From an uncultured delta proteobacterium (GTDB taxonomy: Bacteria > Desulfobacterota > WTBG01 > CAIYCZ01), in assembly GCA_963803975.1 (NCBI GenBank), contig CAWDOY010000052.1:1-44537 (forward strand): a stretch of DNA of 44,537 nt, in the 5' to 3' direction. Each line of letters begins with the position of its first letter. The stretch's first letter is position 1. The notes below the pieces were generated by a model, which saw only the letters and a program-made list of their open reading frames with translations, had not been told where the DNA came from and made no database searches. Both the position numbers and the translations under genes were made by a program. Positions 49-14,470 of this stretch are shown here, one piece after another.

Positions 49-3000
49 ATGATGAAAAAACTATGGCTGATTCTATTTTGTTTAAGTATAGCACTGTGCT
101 TTGCTCATTCCAGCTATGCATATGAAAACGTTCAGGATTGTTTAACATGCCACCCTGAAGGGGCATTTGGTGCAGCAACACCTCCTCAACTGCATGGCAT
201 AAGTGCTCATACAGCCAACTGTGCAAATTGTCATCCTGGTGGCGTACCTGGACAGAATGTAACACCGAGTTCCTGTATAGTATGTCATCCGGCAGGGAAC
301 CTGGACTCTGTGCTCTCATCAATGCGCAGCCATCCCATGGCAATTCATGTCTGTCATGTCATTCTGAATGTACTCCACCAAGCACTACTACCACAATACC
401 AACCGGTACTACTACAATACCAGCAAGCACTACTACCACCACACCTGCCGGCACTACTACAACTACAATGATAATACCTGGAGGCACTTCTGCTCTCACA
501 TTAAGTGATATGGCGCTGCCGTGCGCTCTTTTGGCGCATCAGCAGTCATGCCGATACTCTGACCAACACAGCCGGTGCAGCACCCAATATTGCCGGTGTG
601 AGCACGGACATCACGTTTGATGACAGTTATTTAGATTTCACCGGCGCAACCGTCGGGCCGGCCGGCTCAGCAGTGGGTAAAACTGTTTCATTCAACCTGC
701 TGTCACCCGGCGTGGTGCGTGTCGGCGTATTTACCGAAGGCAACACCACCCCCATCGGCGATGGCGTAGTGGCCTATGTAAATTTCACGATAAAGAAGAA
801 CCCGGTAGGCGGCGTAGACCTGACCAACCTGTGCAGCGCATCTGACCCGGCAGGAAACGCGTTGGGGATCGCCTGCGTGTCAGGCAGTTTCTTTACTGCC
901 AAGACCGCTGACTTTAACCTGGACGGCGTAACGTCCATTAACGAAATACTGATGGAAGTGAGAATGTTTCTGGGGATAGACCCGGTCGATCCCTTAGGTG
1001 ATCCAACCGCAGACAACAAGGTTTCGATTGATGATGTGATCAAGGCCATCAACTGCTTCTTAGAGACCAAGGAATGTGCCTGCCCCACGGTTGACGTGAT
1101 ACCCCAGGAAGAGCTGTGGAAGGAATCCGGCCATGCAGACACTACCGCGATGGCCTTCAACGACTGGAATGAATGTACTCCTGTACCCCCAGCCACTACC
1201 TGTACCCCAGCGGTTCCTGTCGGCTGTGCCAAGTGCCACAGCACCCCGGGCTACCTTGACTACCTGGGCGCAGACGGCACCGCAGCCGGCGTGGTAGATA
1301 ACCCGGCACCGATTGGCACGGTCGTCTCCTGCGAGGCATGTCATAATCAGAAGGCAAGCTGAGCTGACCAGCGTGGTGCTGGAGTCCACCGGTGATACCG
1401 GAGCGGTTCCCCCGATTGCCAAGATTACGCTCACGGGCCTTGGTAAAGAAGCGCGCTGCATGGTATGCCATCAGGGTCGCGCATCAACGGATACCGTGAA
1501 TATATACATTGGAGGCAGACCGCTACTGGCAGGAGACCCTGATGCGGTGGATAGCGGCGCATCGTTTAGGAACATCCACTACTTTGCAGCAGCAGCAACC
1601 CTGTACGGCAACCAGGCAAAGGGCGGCTACCAGTATAGCGGCAAGGTCTATGATGCCAAGTTTGCCCACGTGGAAGGCTATGACACCTGCATCACCTGTC
1701 ATGACGCGCATTCTCTGGAACTCAAGTATGACAAGTGCGTAACCTGCCATACCGGCGCCACGGACAAGGCAGCCCTGAAGAATATCCGCATGAAGGGCTC
1801 TCTGGAAGACTATGACGGCGACGGCAACATAACCGAAGGTCTCTACTATGAAGTAGACGGCCTCAGAGCCAAGCTGTATCAGGCTATCCAGGCATATGCT
1901 ACAAACGTGTCAGGTAAAGGCATTGTGTACAATCCGGCAGCAAACCCCTACTGGTTTGTTGATGACAATGGCAATGGTGTGGCAGATCCAGCTGAAGTCA
2001 CCCGGTACAATGCCTATACCGCGCGCCTGCTGAAGGCGACCTACAACTACCAGGTATCAACCAAGGATCCTGGTTCCTATGCGCACAATGGCAAATATAT
2101 CATCGAGCTGCTGTATGACTCGATCGAAGACCTGAACGCAAAGCTCTCCACCCTGGTACCATCAGCAGACGTGAGCCTTGCCGGCTGCAACCGGGTAGAT
2201 GAAGGCCATTTCAACGGTGCTTCCGAGGCCTGGAGACACTGGGATGTAGCAACTGCTCCGGCACTGCCAGGGCCTCCGGGTTCCTGCGCCAAGTGTCATG
2301 CAGGCCAAGGGCATCCCGTTCTTCCTGACCAACAATGTCAACATCCAGGAAGAGCCGGCTAACGGCATGCTGTGCTTGAACTGCCACACCAGTGTAACCG
2401 ACACGGTTGCACCGCGCCGTGCAGTGAAAGACGTAACCTTCCCCTCAGGGTTAAAAGCCAATATGGGTGGTGCAGGGGCAACTGACGACAGCAACCTGTG
2501 TCTGCTCTGTCACCAGGGCCGCGAGTCCAAGGTGAGCGTAGATACCAAGATTGCAGGTAGCGCCGGCCCGTACTCTTTCACCAATGTGCACTATTACGCA
2601 GCAGCAGCATCGCTGTTTGGCACGCAGGTGCAGGGCGGCTACGAGTACGCGGGCAAGACCTATGCCGGTCAGAACCCGTTCACTGCTCACGGCGGCAAGT
2701 TCAATAAGTGCGTGCAGTGTCATATGGGCAGTGACGGCCTGAATGCGTCGTACGCGTCGCACCGGGTAACCAAGCCCAACCCGAACAACTGCGTATGTCA
2801 CGCTGGTGATGTGTCGCAGACCGGCACCTTTGAATTCGCTAACATTCGCCCGGCCACAGGATTTGGCAGCACTGACTTTGACGGTGACGGCAATGTGACC
2901 GAGTCGATAAAGAGCGAGATCGAAGGGCTGGAAGATACTGTATACGCAGATTCGGGCGTACTCAGCCAATCCGGCAGGCTTCAACAAATTCATTGCCTAT

Positions 3001-3241
3001 GATGGCGCTGCGTACCCGTACTGGTTTGAGGATCCCAACAACAACGGTATCCATGATGCTGGTGAAGCAACATCCTTCACGAAGTTTGATGCAGCGTTGT
3101 TGAAGGCAGCCTACAACTACCAGTTCAGCAAGAAGGAGCCGTGTGGCTTTGTTCACAACTCGCTGTACGTTGCGCCAGTGTTTAGCTGACTCTACCATAG
3201 ATAGTCGGCGGCACCGTGCCGAACACGGTATCTGGAGGTAA
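49..3241 (+). CDS. Large secreted multiheme c-type cytochrome (~14 hemes) with Thr/Pro linker, cohesin-like and dockerin-like domains; reconstructed across several frameshifts
   Basis: Signal peptide MKKLWLILFCLSIALCFAHSSYA; 13 CxxCH motifs plus one CxCH across ORFs 49-471, 228-620, 505-1362, 1313-2362, 2298-3002 and the tail YDGAAYPYWFED...KAAYNYQF ending near TAA 3239-3241; internal duplication; terminator follows. Confidence 0.8.
375..470 (+). repeat. ACT/ACC-rich low-complexity stretch encoding a Thr/Pro linker
   Basis: PPSTTTTIPTGTTTIPASTTTTTPAGTTTTT in ORF 228-620; repeated cactactacca units. Confidence 0.8.
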
Positions 3242-6313: not shown

Positions 6314-7914
6314 ATGAAAGACAGCTATGACGTAATTATCATCGGTGCCGGCATGGGCGGGCTCACCTGTGGTGCATGGCTTACGCACATGGGAATGAAG
6401 GTTCTTGTGCTTGAGCAGAATACACAGGTGGGCGGCTGCTGCTCAAGCTATAAGCGCGAAGGATTCAACTTCACTCCTGCCGCATCCATCATAACCGGTA
6501 CCACAAAAAAAGACGGCGTGTTCGAGCGGCTGATAAACAGGCTGGGCATCACCATTCCATTCATTCCGCTTAATCAGGGCTATCATGTACATTTGCCGGA
6601 CTTTGACTATTACCTTTACTCAGGCGGCGAGCACGCGCGCGACCAGCTGATCGAGCAGCTCATGCGGATTTTCCCCCATGAGGCGCAGGGCATTAAGGCT
6701 TTTTTTGCAAAACTGGGAAAGCTCTATGCGGAGATGGAGTATGCCACTTTCTTCGGCACCGGTCCGCGGGATATTGCCCGCATTCTGCTGAAGTGCCGGA
6801 CACTGCTCTTCAACATGGGCAAGGGAATCCTGCCGTTTGTGGACGACTTTGTTAAAGACCCGAAACTCAAAACCGTTCTGTCTATCAACTCAACCTGCTG
6901 CAACCTCCCGCCGTCACGGATGTCAGTGCTCGGGATCGCCGGCCTGCTGCTCGAGGGCGGGCTCTCAAATCCCCATGTGAAGGGCGGCGCGATTGCAGTG
7001 CCTGAAGCTTTTGCTCAATACATCCGCAGCAAAGGGGGCGATGTTGTGCTTGGCACGCAGGCGGAAAAGATTGTTACGGATAACGGTACTGCAACCGGCG
7101 TCCGCGCAATAAAATCCCCGCTTGCTCAGGAACAGGGATATAGCCAGGGCATAGCAGATATCCGGGAATTCAAAGCAAAATACATTGTTTCCAACGCTGC
7201 TGCCCGGCAGACGTTCATGAAACTTGTCGGCGCTGATAAACTTCCTGACAAGTTTACCAGCATGCTTGGCCGCCAGGAGCCAACCCCGCCATTCTGCGCG
7301 CTGCTTCCTCGGGCTCGATATGGATTTAAAGAGCATGGGGATTTATTCCCGCCCTGCATATTTACAGCTCAACCTATGATACTGATGAGCAGTTCAGAAA
7401 TGTCGAGGCAAAGATTTTAAGTGAAAACGGTCCGGCCCCGTTTTTCCGGTTCCAGCTTGCACCGTTAAGCGATCCAACCTCCGCCCCGCAGGGCAAGACC
7501 GCGCTGGTTATCCATGCGATACCTGCTCCCGTTACCGGCTGGGAAAATCCGGATTTTGAGAAAAAGGTTGCTGATGTCATGATCAGACGGGCGGAAAAAA
7601 TAATCCCCGGACTTTCTCAGAAAGATCATGTACCGGAATTCTGGTCACCAGCTACCATGAACAAATACCTGATGTGCGGGGCTGACGCGAGCATGGGCTG
7701 GGCGCTCACGCCGCAGCAGGTGGGGCCGAAACGGCTGGCGCAGAAGACACCAATTAAAAATCTGCTCTTGAGCGGCCACTGGACCGCGCCGGCAGTGGGC
7801 GTGATGTCAACCGTGGTATCCGGACTGCAGGCGTCAGGGATGATACTGAGGTCAGAGGGAGTGAAAGAGCCTCTTGCGGATATCGGCATCAGGCAGGGAG
7901 TTGTGATGTCGTGA
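6314..7914 (+). CDS. Phytoene desaturase / retinol-saturase-like FAD-dependent oxidoreductase (frameshifted near 7300 and 7620)
   Basis: YDVIIIGAGMGGLTCGAWL..VLEQNTQVGGCCSSYKREGF; SDPTSAPQGK in the middle frame; C-terminal KTPIKNLLLSGHWTAP.GV..V.SG. Confidence 0.8.
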
Positions 7915-7983: not shown

Positions 7984-9385
7984 ATGAGGCCAAATCAAAA
8001 AAACAGGCAGCGTGATGACAGCACCATTGACAGCAGCAGGAGAGGTTTTTTAAAGACCCTTGGTATTACAACCGCTGGCTTAACGACTCTTGGTCTGACC
8101 GATGGCTTCACAGCCACTGCGCAATCGCAAACCGGTTTGAAAGCCCTTGCCGGCGGGCCGGGTAATTTCATGGATGAGTGGTACTGGCTCAAGGTGCGCA
8201 TGCAGTTTGTTTTAAAGCCTGATTTAATTTATTTAAACACCGGTACCGAGGGCGCGATGCCCCGGATTGTTCTGGATAAAATGCGCGATTATTTCAGGCA
8301 GTTTGCCGCCTTCCCGTATGATGCCATCGTAAACGACCCATGTTTGGGCGCAGGGTTGAGCAGGGAGATTGAGGCCCTTGCTGCATTTTTTGGCGCTGAT
8401 AAGGAAGAAATTGTCATAACCACTAATACCACCGAGGGCCTGGGCTGGGTTTCCAACGGTCTGGAGCTGGCAGAGGGTGATGAAGTGCTTTCCACCACCC
8501 AGTTCCGGCCTTACAGCTCCTGCTGGCAGGTGCTGATAGACAGAAAAAAAATTACCCTTACCGAGGTTGAGCTGCCCATTAAACCATCAAACAAGCAGGA
8601 GATCATTGACCTCTTTGAAAAAGCCATAACCCCCCGGACAAAAGTAATGACCTTCTGCCATATTAATTATACCAACGGGCTGCGCATGCCGGTCAGAGAG
8701 CTCTGTGACCTGGCCAGACAGAATGGTATTATAACGCTGGTAGACGGCGCCCATGCTCCGGGGATGCTGATCTTTGACCTGCATGAACTCGGGTGTGATT
8801 TTTACGCCGGCTCACTGCACAAATGGCTGTGCGGCCCTCCCGGGACCGGGGTCTTATACCTGCGCAAGGATATGCAGCACCTGCCTGTGGCCCACCGAGT
8901 GCGAGACATATACGGCAGGAGCAGGGACTATAATAAATTGTGAAAAATTCAATGGGCGCGGCCAGCTGATAACCCCGGCGATTGCAACACTGCTGGATGC
9001 GATGGATTTCCAGAATACTATCGGGAGAGATACCATCCAGAAACGGATTCTTGCCTTAAATAAGTACTGCAAAGAGAGGATCATAGACGAATGGGGCCCG
9101 GAAAAACTTTTATCGCCTGCAGCGGATAATGAAGATTTGTGCACCGGCCTTGTTGCTTTCAATCCGTTTGAAACACCCTATGCAACGCAGCCTAATAAAA
9201 TAAGTGCGGTTTACAAGGCGCTGTATAAGAAAAAAATAGCGGTAAGAACTATCGGGTATAAGGAAAAACATGCGGATGAAAAACCCATTTCAGCGCTGCG
9301 CATTTCAACGCACCTCTATAATAACTACGAACAGATTGACACCGCGATAGAGGAAGTAAAAGAGATTATCAAGACACTGCAATAA
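7984..9385 (+). CDS. Tat-exported PLP-dependent aminotransferase class V (CefD/C-DES/EgtE-like C-S lyase family); frameshift near 8885
   Basis: Twin-arginine SRRGFLKTLG; YLNTGTEG, TTNTTEG, DGAHAPG, GSLHKWLCGPPGTG (PLP Lys), RISTHLYN. Confidence 0.85.
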
Positions 9386-9415
9386 ACAACCACAGTGTTA
9401 AGAAAGGAGATATGC

Positions 9416-10234
9416 ATGAAGCGAACATCACGGACGATACTGTTTGCAGCGGTTCTGCTGCTGGCTGCCGGTACCCTGGGCGGCTGTCTGTCGGAGGACC
9501 AGCTTATTACCTATGATGAGCTGAAGGCCCTGATTGACGACAATGCCGCCATGGAAAACACAACCATTGTAGATGTGCGGTCAGTTGCGGCATGGAAGGA
9601 AGGATATATACCGGAGGCTATTAATATTGAATATGATGCGGTGCTTGACGCCTTCGGCGGCCTAAAAGACGGCGGAGCAGCGCTCACTTCAATCGTTACC
9701 AATAAAGACGGCACACTGGTCATTTATGGAACGGGTACTGATAATGCTTCGCTGTTTGCCGCACGGGCCATCCAATCAGGTTATACGGATGTAAAGTTCT
9801 ATCAGGGAGGAATGGCCGACTGGCGGGAGAGCCACGGGGACTATTTGTATATAAACTATGAGGGATTCAGACAGTGGTATGATGCCGCGTGCCCTTTCAC
9901 AGACGGAGAGAACTATCTGGTCGATGCGCATCCCCCGAGCCTGTACACGGATTACGGCCATATCCCGGGCGCCATCAATATCATGAGCAAGCATTTTACC
10001 TTTCTTGACCCCGGCAGCTTAAAGCCGATAACGGATTTTATTTCCAACAGGGAAGCAAAGATTGTCTTTTATTGCGTTAACTATACCTGACCGGCAAGCC
10101 GCAAATCGGCACGTGATGCCGTATCGCTTGGCTATACCAAAGCCTATTCTTTTGTCGGCGGCTGCCAGGATTGGAAGGCAGAAGGAAACACGCTGTATCA
10201 GGGAGAGGATAAAGGCTCCTGCGCTGAAAAATAG
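9416..10234 (+). CDS. Tandem rhodanese-domain lipoprotein, predicted selenoprotein (TGA 10088-10090 = Sec, motif YCVNYTU)
   Basis: AGGAGA RBS; lipobox LGGC; two rhodanese domains; the frame continues past TGA as PASRKSARDAVSLGYTKAYSFVGGCQDWKAEG, completing the second rhodanese fold, to TAG 10232-10234. Confidence 0.85.
10095..10130 (+). promoter_or_regulatory. Candidate bacterial SECIS element for TGA 10088
   Basis: Upper stem CGGCA-(CGTGA)-TGCCG at 10107-10121, lower stem CAAGC/GCTTG; loop begins about 21 nt after the UGA and has G at its second position. Confidence 0.65.
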
Positions 10235-10269
10235 TTGATCCCATGTACCACAGATATGGAGAGAGAGCT

Positions 10270-11593
10270 GTGCATAGCTTCTATATTTTAATGGTGTGCC
10301 TGCTGTTGCTTATCCCTGCCTGCAAGCCGGTCCCGCAGGACACTCTGACGCTGCTCTACACCAGCGACACAACAGGGGAGATTGAGCCCTGCGGTTGAAA
10401 CTCAAACCCTTTAGGGGGGCTTGCCCGGCGGGCAAGCTATATTAAATCCGCGCGGCAGTCAGAAAAAAATGTTCTGCTGCTTGATGCCGGCAATGTTTTC
10501 GGCTATCCCGGCGTGCAGTCACGCCTGAAGAGTGAAACTGCCGTGGAAGCCATGTCCCTGATGTCCTATGCGGCGCTCAATATCAGCAACCTTGAGTTCA
10601 GCTTTGGCCTTGATTTCCTTCGTGATACCACACAAAAGTTTCAGATACCAACCCTCAGCGCCAATATTGTCTATGAAGACACCAATGAACCAATAACAGA
10701 AGCAGCCCGTATTATTTCATTCGATACTTTCACGGTGGGCATCACCGGAGTTGTCGGAAAAAAATATGAAAAAATCATTCTGCAATCCAATGCGGAAAAT
10801 GCCCGGCCGGTAAACGTGCTTGATGAAATGACCGCACTCCAGCAGCAGGTTGATGCCATCAGAGGCGCTGTTGACATACTCATAGTTCTTGCCAATGCGG
10901 GCGTGGAGCGCGCCAAAGAAATCGCACAGCAGATATCGGGGATTGATGTCATCGTCTGCGGGCACGGCGCTGATGAAATAAAGGCGCCCTACTTTATCAA
11001 TGGCGTGTACGTCGTTAAGGCAGGCTACGATGGGACCAGCATCGGAAAGCTGGCGCTCTCTCTTGACCGGAACAATAAAATTATCGACGCGCAGGGAGAA
11101 GTCGTCACCCTCGAGAAAGATATTGACGAGGACCAGGAGATGCTCGGACTTCTTGACGCCTACCATAAGAGCCTGAAGGAGCACGCCGACGAGCTGTTCA
11201 CCGGCGAACAGAAGCCGCCGTCTTCCGGCGGCTCATATGCGGGTTCGGCCCAATGTGCAGGCTGCCATCCAGAGCCAGGCGCAGCAGTGGAACACTACCG
11301 GCCATGCGCAAGCCTTCAGCTCCCTTATCGTAAAAAACCAGGATTATAATCCGGAGTGCGTAATCTGCCACGTGACCGGATTTGGTTATACGGGCGGCTT
11401 CAAGCGGCCGGATCAAAGCCAGGACCGGGCCAATGTTCAGTGCGAAATGTGTCATGGGGCCGGAGCGGAGCACGCGGCACAGCCGGCTCCCGGTTATGGC
11501 GCGATTTCAGCGCTTATCTGTATAAACTGCCACACCAGCGACAAGAGCCCGAACTTTGATTACGCAACGTACTACCCGAAGATCAAACATTAA
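10270..11593 (+). CDS. UshA/5'-nucleotidase-fold lipoprotein fused to a C-terminal tetraheme cytochrome c; predicted selenoprotein (TGA 10396-10398, motif EPCGU); frameshift near 11270
   Basis: GGAG RBS before GTG 10270 (alternative ATG 10243); lipobox IPAC; LLYTSDTTGEIEPCG-U-NSNPLGGLARRASYI...LLLDAGN in frame with ORF 10513; hemes CAGCH, CVICH, CEMCH, CINCH. Confidence 0.85.
10419..10437 (+). promoter_or_regulatory. Candidate bacterial SECIS element for TGA 10396
   Basis: Perfect hairpin GCTTGCCC-GGC-GGGCAAGC with G-starting loop about 28 nt after the UGA. Confidence 0.65.
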
Positions 11594-11663: not shown

Positions 11664-12771
11664 GTGAAAACAATAAAAACAATTTTACAAGTGAGCATTT
11701 TCCTTCCTGTTGTTCTTCTTGCAGGCTGCTCTGATGAGGTGACGCGATAAAATTGCTGCTGTTATTCATGACAAAGTTCTAACCGTCGATACCCATGTTG
11801 ATACGCCGCTGCTGCTGGTATCTGAAAATTTTGACCTGGGTATGCGGCATGAACCTAAAAAGATTATTTATAAACTGGATTTACCCCGCATGGAGGAAGG
11901 GGGGCTTGATGCGGTGTTCTTTGCCATTTTTGTCTTTCAGGGCCCTCGAACTCCTGAAGGCAATGAAAAGGCAAAGCAGAATGCCTTGAAAACCTTTACT
12001 GCCATTAAAGACAGTCTCGATCAAAATGCTGATGCCGCAGAACTGGCGCTGACGCCGGATGATGCCTACCGGCTGCAGCGGGATAAAAGGCGGGCAATAT
12101 TTATCGGCATGGAAAATGGGTATCCGGTCGGCACAGATCTCTCCCTTATACAGACCTATTATGAACTGGGTGCCCGGTATATTACCCTGTGCCACTGGGC
12201 AAACAATGATATCTGCGATGCCGCCACTGACCCGGCTGGCCCTGAGCATAACGGCTTGAGTGAATTTGGCAAACAGGTTGTTGCAGAAATGAACCGCCTG
12301 GGAATGATGGTTGATATCTCACACGTCTCCGACAAAACAGTGCTTGATGTGCTGGAGATGTCCACAGCGCCCATAATTGCCTCGCATTCGAGCGCACGCG
12401 CTGTCTATGAACACCCCCGAAACCTGCCTGATGAACTCCTGAAAAAGATTGCCGACAAGGGTGGTGTGGTGCAGGCAACCATAGAGTATGTGAAAGCTCA
12501 TGCCTCATATGAACGTCCGGAGCTTCCCACGGTGGCAGAGTTTGTTGACCATATTGATCATATTGTTCAGGTTGCAGGGATTGACCATGTGGGCATCGGC
12601 ACTGATTTTGACGGCGGCGGAGAGCTTGCGGACTGCTATGATGTGAGCGAAATGGGAAACATCACCCGCGAACTGGTAAAGCGGGGCTACACGGCTGCGC
12701 AGATAGAGAAGATCTGGGGCGGCAACCTGATGCGGGTATTCAAAAATGTTCAGGAGGCGGCAGAAAAATAA
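11664..12771 (+). CDS. Membrane (renal-type, M19) dipeptidase lipoprotein; frameshift near 11745
   Basis: GTG 11664 with signal and lipobox VLLAGC; VDTHVDTP, GMENG, ITLCHWANN, MMVDISHVS, ASHS, HPRN, HVGIGTDFDGG, IWGGNLMRV. Confidence 0.88.
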
Positions 12772-13140
12772 CAAGGAACGAGCAAGTCGCAAAAGTTTTA
12801 AGCTGAAGAAGTATATTCAAGAAGTAGCTACATAATCATAAACCAATACAATTCGGACTTAGTTTTAACCTGACCAGGAAAGACATTCTTCTGATAATGT
12901 TAAGCGCTTACCAATTGTCCAAATAGCAATAACCTTCACTGGCAATAAAAATTCAAAGCTCAAGAATCATAGCCGCATGTTGCACTTTTTGTAGACGGTA
13001 AAATTGCTGCTTTCTTAATAAAGTGTTGAATTGTTTAAGCAGTGAGAATTGTTGCGCTTATAAACAGAAGCTGCAACTTTTTCTGATAATGGCCCACCAC
13101 AAGATGTAGGTGCAAAAAAGCAAGGCCATTGATGGCTAGC

Positions 13141-14470
13141 GGTGTATGAAAATGTCTGTGTAATACTGGATTAGATAAAGAAACTCAATCCATTAAACAG
13201 GAGGACTACACATGCCAATCAAAGACGAATCGTGCTTGATGAATTACTGAAGGAGTATAAAAATCCGGAAGACCTCATTGGGAAAGACGGCATACTGAAA
13301 CAGCTCACCAAACGTCTGGTAGAAAAGGCGATGGAATCGGAGCTGACCCACCATCTGGGCTATGACAAGAACAGCCCTGCCGGCAACAACACGGGCAATT
13401 CCCGTAACGGTAAATCCTCAAAAACCATCAAAGGTGATTTTGGCGAAATCCCCATAACGGTCCCCCGGGATCGCAACGGGGAGTTCAACCTCCAGATCAT
13501 AAAGAAGAACCAGACGCGTTTTGATGGTTTTGACGATAAAATCATTTCCATGTATGCCCGTGGGATGACCACCCGCGACATTCAGGCCCATCTGCAGGAC
13601 ATCTACGGTGTTGAGGTATCCCCCGACCTCATATCCAATGTCACTGATGCAGTTATCAACGAGGTCAAGGAATGGCAAAATCGCCCCCTGGCAGACATAT
13701 ATCCCATTCTGTATCTTGATGCCACGATAGTAAAAGTCCGCAGCGAGGGCCGTGTTATTAACAAAAGCGCTTATCTTGCTGTCGGCATAACGCTGGATGG
13801 CACCAAAGACGTGCTGGGCATCTGGCTTGAGCAGACCGAAGGAGCCAAGTTCTGGCTGAAGGTTATGACGGAATTAAAGAACCGGGGTGTGCAGGACATC
13901 TATATCGCCTGTGTCGATGGATTAAAGGGCTTCCCTGATGCCATAGAGGCCATGTTCCCTAAAACCGAGGTGCAGCTCTGCATCGTGCATATGGTCCGGA
14001 ACAGTTTACGGTTTGTCTCCTGGAAGGACCGCAAAAACGTTGCTGCCGATCTCAAGGCTGTTTACCAGGCTGCTACCGAAGAGCAAGCTCGGATGCGCCT
14101 TTCTGCATTTGCTCAGAAGTGGGACGCAAAGTATCCCACCATCGCAAAGTCATGGGAAGCAAACTGGCAGCGCCTGATTCCGTTTTTTGCCTACTCCGAG
14201 GAAATCAGGCGAATTATCTATACAACAAATGCCATCGAGTCATTGAACAACTCACTGAAAAAGACTATAAAAAACAGGGCTTCGTTCCCCAATGACGAGG
14301 CCGCTATAAAGCTTTTGTATTTGTGCCTTGAAAAATATTATGAAAAAATGGACAATGCCAGTACGAAATCTGGGGCACGGCTCTGAATCAGCTGGCGGTA
14401 CGTATATGCTGACCGGATGCCCATTTAATGAGCAACGGGAATTATCATTTACACGGAATCTCGATACTTT
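13141..14470 (+). mobile_element. IS256-family insertion sequence
   Basis: Transposase flanked by imperfect inverted ends GTATGAAAATGTCTGTGTAA (13144-13163) and TTACACGGAATCTCGATAC (14449-14467). Confidence 0.85.
13212..14428 (+). CDS. IS256 (Mutator) family transposase, frameshifted at both ends
   Basis: RNGKSSKT, VPRDRNGEF, YLDA, VDGLKGFPDAI, QLCIVHMVRNS, IYTTNAIESLN; RBS GGAGGA before ATG 13212. Confidence 0.92.

Follow-up and report, generated by a model that had tools for sequence, protein, structure and literature searches.

Gene organization at the locus

The window analysed here is an entire 44.5-kb contig (C52) from a source genome of 4.25 Mb in 57 contigs. On its forward strand, which carries all of the window features described below, positions 9416 to 10234 hold a gene for a predicted tandem-rhodanese lipoprotein of 272 residues, with selenocysteine (Sec) at residue 225. 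The gene begins at ATG 9416, with a Shine–Dalgarno sequence, read as AAGGAG at 9404 to 9409, 6 nt upstream, and ends at TAG 10232 to 10234. A TGA at 10088 to 10090 is the sole interruption of the 272-codon frame. Translation table 11 ends the frame at this codon, whereas reading the TGA as Sec leaves the frame open to the TAG.

The first 24 codons (9416 to 9487) are predicted to encode a lipoprotein signal peptide, the lipobox of which, L-G-G-C, ends in the putatively lipidated Cys24 (codon 9485 to 9487). This cysteine is almost invariant in both alignments used here, namely a homologue alignment of 7 truncated and 5 full-length sequences (A1) and a set of representatives clustered at 50% identity, comprising 11 full-length and 4 truncated sequences (A3). 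The Pfam rhodanese profile PF00581 matches the read-through product at 105.4 bits, compared with a cut-off of 22.2, and does so in two stretches. The first of these (residues 33 to 138) corresponds to rhodanese domain 1 (9494 to 9835); rhodanese domain 2 (9851 to 10189) contains the loop C220-V-N-Y-T-U225-P, in which the TGA lies.

Three further genes, for proteins predicted to be exported, surround the rhodanese gene. Upstream lies a gene for a class-V PLP enzyme with a Tat signal, which resembles SufS, PvdN and C-DES and lacks the desulfurase Cys (7984 to 9385; frame broken by an extra base at 8884). Downstream follow a gene for an UshA-like PCGU selenoprotein, with its own TGA at 10396 to 10398, joined to a c554-like cytochrome domain that has four CxxCH motifs (10243 to 11593; frame broken by an extra base at 11272), and a gene for an M19 membrane dipeptidase (11842 to 12771), in which an extra base at 11743 probably disrupts the 5′ part.

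Active-site loop of the second rhodanese domain

We examined the placement of the two loop residues in an AlphaFold model built from a 13-row alignment (pLDDT 86.1). In domain 2 of the model, a strand formed by residues 215 to 219 leads into Cys220 (TGC, 10073 to 10075), the loop V-N-Y-T-U-P and a helix spanning residues 227 to 237. Cys220, directly after this central strand, thus occupies the place of the catalytic Cys in ordinary rhodaneses, and in the HMMER alignment Y219-C220 pairs with Y-C in 6mxv, a tandem rhodanese of known structure. Sec225, the assignment of which draws on the conserved TGA, the Cys-containing homologues and the Sec machinery, is located where this loop ends and reaches the mouth of the helix. 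The canonical rhodanese loop has six residues, and the loop of domain 2 is one or two residues longer.

Domain 2 has the arrangement of an active rhodanese, with central strand, Cys, loop and helix in succession, and is predicted to be active. By contrast, domain 1 has Gly105 at the place of the catalytic Cys, in a short loop without Cys between the strand of residues 100 to 104 and the helix of residues 108 to 120, and is therefore predicted to be inactive. The top Foldseek matches of the model are tandem rhodaneses, the best being 6mxv (E = 1.7e-14), the domain packing of which differs from that of the model (rmsd about 14 Å). These results bear out several points of an earlier sequence-only reading of this DNA: that the gene encodes a rhodanese lipoprotein, as the two PF00581 stretches and the lipobox ending in Cys24 indicate; that TGA 10088 lies exactly five codons past Cys220, in a C-x4-U loop; that read-through supplies the rest of the second rhodanese domain; and that the first domain has no catalytic Cys and looks inactive.

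Conservation of the TGA codon and its Cys counterparts

The TGA stands at the same codon in all six related metagenome contigs (L103–L108), whose products share 75–98% amino acid identity with the window rhodanese, and in a distant genome locus (G008/L100; 46% identity), and it is followed by a conserved peptide. Another relative (G009/L101) is of the Cys type, with Cys at the Sec225 column. The seven close sequences are kin rather than independent.

The sequence-only reading had supposed that gene callers shorten the protein, and the public records agree. In a search of 5.8 billion proteins, the C-terminal part is absent from all 23 matches with at least 60% identity, of which 21 are 223–227 amino acids long, one has 247 amino acids owing to a longer N terminus and one is a 180-amino-acid fragment; the first full-length match appears at 51% identity. 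The homologue alignment that the same reading had proposed for YCxxxx[C/U] gave a matching picture. All truncated sequences (7 of 7 in A1 and 4 of 4 in A3) stop at the residue before U225, and the Sec225 column is occupied by Cys in each of the five full-length A1 homologues, which share the motif Y-C-x4-C-P/G-x-S. In A3, the same column is Cys in 9 of the 11 full-length representatives and Ser in the other 2.

Cys220 is invariant in A1 and is present in 7 of the 11 full-length and all 4 truncated, Sec-type representatives of A3. Two of these 11 have Asn at position 220 and keep the Sec-aligned Cys, and the Sec position, rather than Cys220, may therefore be the indispensable nucleophile; two others have lost both positions. 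The Cys220/Sec225 pair is thus not universal, nor does the family require a selenenylsulfide. Most close relatives also retain a Cys near the C terminus (residue 269, in G-x-C).

The codons 3′ of the TGA are under purifying selection: dN/dS is 0.14–0.35 for the 44 codons after the TGA and 0.17–0.22 for the 40 codons before it. The synonymous rate is lower after the TGA than before it (dS of 0.14–0.44 versus 0.72–1.03), which fits the constraint of an RNA structure laid over the coding sequence. A contig assembled from a public run (X1) spans 9914 to 10191 with four differences from the window, all outside the TGA codon. Parts of the locus, among them the stretch from 9914 to 10188 with the TGA, are also represented in two contigs from RNA libraries (X19 and X20), although contigs as such cannot show transcription or decoding.

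The family is sparsely distributed, occurring in 4 of 41 relatives and in 3 of 401 genomes sampled across the phylum, with the window's own genome counted. A search of the genome contigs with A1 settled on generic rhodanese patterns and returned 80 loci, the best at 28% identity and none of the Sec type; among these 80 the C-x4-C motif occurs three times, in two loci.

SECIS-like hairpin and selenocysteine machinery

A two-part hairpin 3′ of the TGA, which had already been noticed in the sequence, was located at 10095 to 10130. It consists of a lower stem (10095 to 10099 paired with 10126 to 10130), an upper stem (10107 to 10111 paired with 10117 to 10121) and the apical loop CGUGA (10112 to 10116). 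In columns counted from the U of the UGA, the 5-bp upper stem occupies 20–24/30–34, the loop 25–29 and the weaker lower stem 8–12/39–43. The upper part of the hairpin starts 19 bases after the TGA, and its five-base apical loop lies 22–26 nt downstream of the UGA. The rule for a suitable distance between UGA and hairpin is that of bSECISearch, and the stem–loop geometry, with a G-containing apical loop just 3′ of the UGA, is SECIS-like.

The upper helix pairs in all six distinct sequences. In G008, the loop is CGGGC at the same columns 25–29, and the stem carries two compensatory pair changes. In a shuffle test of this covariation, 13 of 500 shuffles matched these counts, and two double changes also result from a slide of −3. 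The covariation is thin, coming from one distant sequence. The folding energy of the 76-nt stretch is ordinary (z = −1.38; 12 of 200 shuffles fold as well) and, not being significant, was left out as evidence for a SECIS. An Rfam scan of 9300 to 10700 matched no bacterial SECIS family, its sole match being a chance snoRNA (E = 8).

Similar elements follow the UGA codons of other genes in the same genome. Two genes for rhodaneses of the LYCAU type (L109 and L111) have a 5-bp stem at 20–24/30–34 with the loop CGGGU, in the same columns as the window hairpin; the two differ so little that they may represent a single gene assembled in duplicate. In a third such gene (L110), the hairpin is 3 nt nearer to the UGA, and in the neighbouring UshA-like gene a 9-bp stem lies a few bases further from it. 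The source genome encodes selB (382.6 bits), selA (574.3 bits), selD (397.4 bits) and tRNA-Sec (72.5 bits), all over their curated cut-offs. Its selD itself carries a TGA, and four other TGA-containing selenoprotein genes were found in the genome.

A true stop at 10088, giving a 224-residue protein in which half of the second domain is missing, with a decaying remnant downstream, would account for the 224-residue-type product in all public records found and would be in keeping with the other broken genes nearby in the window's assembly, but a decaying remnant is at odds with purifying selection on the 44 downstream codons equal to that on the upstream part. Moreover, the TGA is held at one column over 46–98% identity, distant homologues have Cys at this column, and in the AlphaFold model a 224-residue product would lack the helix of the active site as well as two of the strands that make up the fold. 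We consider a true stop very improbable. A sequencing or assembly error for TGC or TGT, a possibility that the sequence-only reading had itself raised, is contradicted by the TGA in six independently assembled metagenome contigs and in G008; neither indels nor listed differences touch the codon. Compared with L103, the window does carry about 10 single-base insertions over 6.7 kb, and the extra bases at 8884 and 11272 are absent from all public contigs covering them; the errors observed are, however, insertions and not substitutions, and an error at this codon is exceedingly unlikely. As judged from the sequence and its relatives, the in-frame TGA of this exported rhodanese gene is almost certainly read as selenocysteine, and the gene is whole.

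Comparison with known rhodaneses

In a 2026 review (PMC13188914), five forms of rhodanese selenoprotein are tabulated, with the motifs UxxS, UxxG (twice), CxU (NF041203) and UxxxxU (TsoB, NF045694); rhodanese selenoproteins are also tabulated in PMC9312934. The first form (PF00581, UxxS) has a Geobacter sulfurreducens exemplar taken from Zhang & Gladyshev 2005 (PMC13188914), and by its listed motif it resembles the window protein, which reads U225-P-A-S228.

Within the same phylum, C-x4-U-x-x-[S/G] occurs in four other rhodanese genes. These match domain 2 at E values of 1e-9 to 1e-11, compared with 1e-31 within the family. Among 29 loci from the sample of 401 phylum genomes, counted after three spurious wrong-frame lines had been dropped, the C-x4-U motif occurs in 5 and C-x4-C in 11, with the family's own G008 and G009 included.

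The best NCBIfam match of the window protein is TsoB (NF045694), which aligns through profile positions 40–155 with residues 140–259 at 63.7 bits, far under the cut-off of 805. TsoB shares the two loop positions and their five-residue spacing but carries Sec at both and has a DsbD-like membrane part. The window protein, by contrast, pairs Cys with Sec, is lipid-anchored, contains a second rhodanese domain and has no DsbD part. Rhodanese_LYCAU (NF041203, the third, CxU form) is likewise exported and has a Sec close to a Cys in its active-site loop; it is encoded by three genes in the same genome, two of which have the identical hairpin geometry described above. The LYCAU proteins are nevertheless distinct, being single domains of about 126 amino acids with Sec two residues after the Cys rather than five, and the window protein reaches 49.8 bits with this model, compared with its cut-off of 115.

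Among solved structures, BH2092 from Bacillus halodurans (3nhv, 3o3w) has the sequence Y-C-x4-C-x-x-A-T, which aligns without gaps with Y219-C220...U225 (HMMER, E = 5e-5). It is the only solved structure found with both loop positions. Unlike the window protein, BH2092 has Cys instead of Sec and a single domain, and it is presumably cytoplasmic, with no signal peptide.

The published descriptions of the Geobacter extHIJKL cluster offer a further parallel, in outline. ExtH is an exported rhodanese lipoprotein encoded beside the Sec-containing multihaem cytochrome ExtKL/MccSep, which acts on polysulfide (PMC6148476, PMC5877670, PMC13510729). In these descriptions ExtH has a mass of 49 kDa and is not called a selenoprotein, and its partner cytochrome belongs to another family.

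The Sec site is therefore of a known, recurrent type, and the protein represents a rare subfamily of predicted rhodanese selenoproteins. Its tandem lipoprotein architecture and its operon appear to be uncatalogued in the literature consulted; our searches on rhodanese selenenylsulfides, a second loop Cys and UshA-like selenoproteins found only catalogue listings. With every public record found ending at residue 224, and with scores under the cut-off of every NCBIfam model, the family is invisible as a selenoprotein.

Neighbouring genes and synteny

The PLP enzyme encoded upstream is about 465 amino acids long where its gene is intact (L103 and L108) and begins with a twin-arginine signal. It most resembles SufS, PvdN and the cystine lyase C-DES, with scores far under the family cut-offs; the match to the NCBIfam model SclA, at 72 bits, also stays under its cut-off. 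A search for related loci with this enzyme returned three, all of them distant. In an alignment with Bacillus subtilis SufS, the PLP Lys is kept and the catalytic Cys column is occupied by Lys. Given the kept PLP Lys and the absent desulfurase Cys, the enzyme is probably of the lyase type and not a classical desulfurase.

The downstream lipoprotein belongs to the UshA_like_PCGU family (NF041198; cut-off 275), whose model scores the intact L103 orthologue at 318.8 bits, and it carries P-C-G-U with its own TGA, and so has the C-x-U by which NF041198 is defined. A SoxB profile matches it weakly (97.7 bits). The M19 dipeptidase begins with a lipoprotein signal in L108 and G008.

The order of PLP enzyme (AT5), rhodanese, UshA-cytochrome and M19 dipeptidase is conserved in L103–L108 and in G008, in the latter at 45–63% identity. 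In G009, about 2.3 kb separates the Cys-type rhodanese gene from an UshA-cytochrome gene. UshA_like_PCGU proteins occur in 139 of the 401 phylum-sample genomes, 81 of them over the cut-off, and a rhodanese or PLP enzyme within about 1.5 kb was found at 0 of the 30 best loci in this sample. The UshA-like family is thus usually without the rhodanese, and the partnership is limited to a small clade.

Relative to their counterparts in related genomes, four genes neighbouring the rhodanese gene each contain a 1-bp insertion in the window. Such extra bases lie at 7303, 7341, 8884, 11272 and 11743. If these insertions are real, the pathway would be decaying in this organism.

Proposed mechanism

Collectively, these observations very probably describe an intact gene for a lipid-anchored tandem rhodanese, in which the UGA (10088 to 10090) would be decoded as Sec by SelA, SelB, SelD and tRNA-Sec under the direction of the downstream stem–loop, placing Cys220 and Sec225 in one loop. 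In the mature protein, domain 1 would serve as a non-catalytic scaffold. The selenolate of Sec225 would be the primary nucleophile and take up sulfane sulfur as an Se–S adduct; Cys220 would act as its partner, either by resolving the adduct or by forming a selenenylsulfide with Sec225 as a resting or protective state. The selenenylsulfide cycling that the sequence-only reading had suggested for this pair is plausible as a hypothesis.

Sec225 might instead act alone, as a plain carrier of sulfur or selenium, with Cys220 having a structural or protective part and no selenenylsulfide cycle taking place. Sec usually stands in for a catalytic residue, the two A3 representatives with Asn220 keep only the Sec-aligned Cys, and in the UxxG forms, as catalogued in PMC13188914, Sec is the only active-site residue. 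The invariance of Cys220 in A1 and its presence in 4 of 4 Sec-type A3 representatives point the other way, as do TsoB, with Sec at both positions (U-x4-U), and the LYCAU proteins, which pair Cys with a nearby Sec; such recurrent pairing suggests that the two residues cooperate. We regard action by Sec225 alone as a real possibility, on balance doubtful, and retain the paired mechanism.

From the conserved gene order, we infer that the rhodanese acts as a periplasmic sulfane-sulfur relay. On the donor side would be the M19 dipeptidase lipoprotein and the Tat-exported PLP C–S lyase. Lacking a persulfide-forming Cys of its own, the lyase would either release persulfide from cystine or need an outside nucleophile; C-DES releases persulfide from cystine. 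The M19 enzyme could feed the lyase from Cys-Gly peptides, and a mammalian M19 dipeptidase cleaves cystinyl-bis-glycine. The likely acceptor would be the UshA/SoxB-like selenoprotein fused to the four-haem cytochrome.

In an extended form of this relay, which we offer tentatively and think unlikely to hold in full, the four exported proteins would constitute an undescribed periplasmic pathway with two selenoproteins, running from the M19 dipeptidase through the PLP lyase and the rhodanese to the UshA-cytochrome. The dipeptidase would free cystine or cysteine from oxidised Cys-Gly peptides, the C–S lyase would release sulfane sulfur, and the C-x4-U rhodanese would capture it. The Gly-x-Cys tail of the rhodanese, 3–4 residues from the C terminus, would present the sulfur in the manner of the SoxY swinging arm to the SoxB/UshA-like C-x-U selenoprotein, and the four haems would carry electrons.

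The same four proteins could alternatively handle selenium, through selenocystine lysis or selenite reduction in the periplasm, with the rhodanese as selenium carrier. No sequence feature discriminates sulfur from selenium here. The SufS family includes selenocysteine lyases (the SclA match lies under its cut-off), two selenoproteins are encoded in one operon, and in Geobacter selenite reduction is impaired when extI, a porin gene next to extH, is deleted (PMC5877670). ExtH is, however, a protein of 49 kDa, and sulfur substrates are far more abundant than selenium in sediment. We consider a selenium function improbable and favour the sulfane-sulfur relay.

Implications

To our knowledge, no predicted rhodanese selenoprotein has been studied experimentally. 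The gene described here adds a tandem-domain, lipid-anchored form to this predicted group. The two-selenoprotein pathway, if it exists, would be a route by which the organism could respire or scavenge organic sulfur outside the cytoplasm. Furthermore, the conserved operon, which groups the rhodanese with three other exported proteins, namely another selenoprotein, a PLP lyase and a dipeptidase, provides a testable setting that bears on why sulfur-transfer loops recruit selenium beside cysteine, and this operon context is the part of the finding most deserving of experiment.

A second selenoprotein gene adjoins the rhodanese gene

The gene directly after the studied rhodanese gene (10243–11593, with an in-frame TGA at 10396–10398) encodes a UshA-like PCGU protein and is a second selenoprotein gene. 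The match to the UshA-like PCGU family (NF041198) scores 318.8 bits, as measured on the intact copy in the metagenome contig L103. The gene product also matches SoxB weakly. A cytochrome c554-like domain carrying four CxxCH motifs is joined to the UshA-like PCGU part, and a 9-bp hairpin is located 3′ of the TGA.

Frame disruptions and genes flanking the module

Compared with L103, the window carries extra single bases at positions 7303, 7341, 8884, 11272 and 11743, and also at 12780 and 12840. The crtI-like, PLP-enzyme and UshA–cytochrome genes are broken or disturbed by these bases, and the M19 dipeptidase gene is probably also affected, whereas the studied rhodanese gene contains no extra base relative to L103. 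The bases at 8884 and 11272 are missing from every public-run contig covering these positions. The extra bases do not sit in homopolymers and are probably assembly errors. A genuinely decaying operon in the strain of the window is less likely. Farther upstream, three overlapping ORFs in different frames (505–3002), with cohesin and cytochrome c7/c3 matches, resemble pieces of one or two multihaem or cell-surface genes that the same kind of frame error has split.

A CrtI/phytoene-desaturase-family FAD protein (window 6314–7914) is encoded directly upstream of the module in L108, another metagenome contig with a related module; it is a single 533-residue ORF in L108 and is present as two pieces in the window (6314–7420 and 7579–7914). 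This neighbour of the exported module lacks a signal peptide. Immediately 3′ of the M19 gene lies a Mutator-family (IS256-like) transposase gene (13232–14386). Because L108 has an exported AAT/thrombospondin-repeat protein at this position instead, the transposase insertion is specific to the genome of the window.

Selenocysteine machinery and related rhodaneses

The genome of the window (G000) contains matches to selA (C20:69584–70952) and selD (C31:46986–47909). The selA match is split, with the N-terminal 49 residues on a separate piece, which may be another assembly frameshift. The selD gene contains an in-frame TGA, and SelD itself is therefore a selenoprotein. The genome also encodes three LYCAU-type rhodanese selenoproteins, L109 (C39:92797–93153), L110 (C40:35404–35769) and L111 (C40:2426–2686), each with one TGA and a C-S-U or C-C-S-U motif. 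Apart from small indels, L109 and L111 are near-identical copies of each other, and their SECIS geometry matches that of the studied gene; the hairpin of L110 lies 3 nt nearer the UGA.

Two further cysteines of the studied rhodanese are conserved in its close family: Cys159 (9890–9892), within a C-P-F motif between the domains, and Cys269 (10220–10222), which belongs to a G-x-C motif in a flexible tail and stands three to four residues before the C terminus. They could be joined in a disulfide or work as a carrier arm. Elsewhere in the phylum, loci L134, L138 and L141 (genomes G197, G098 and G360) code for a rhodanese that contains Y-C-R-S-F-R-U-L-R-[G/S]; the domain after it has a C-x-G-C motif at its end. 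Their matches have no listed stop because the matched range finishes 5′ of the TGA. This rhodanese is another architecture bearing the C-x4-U site of the studied gene.
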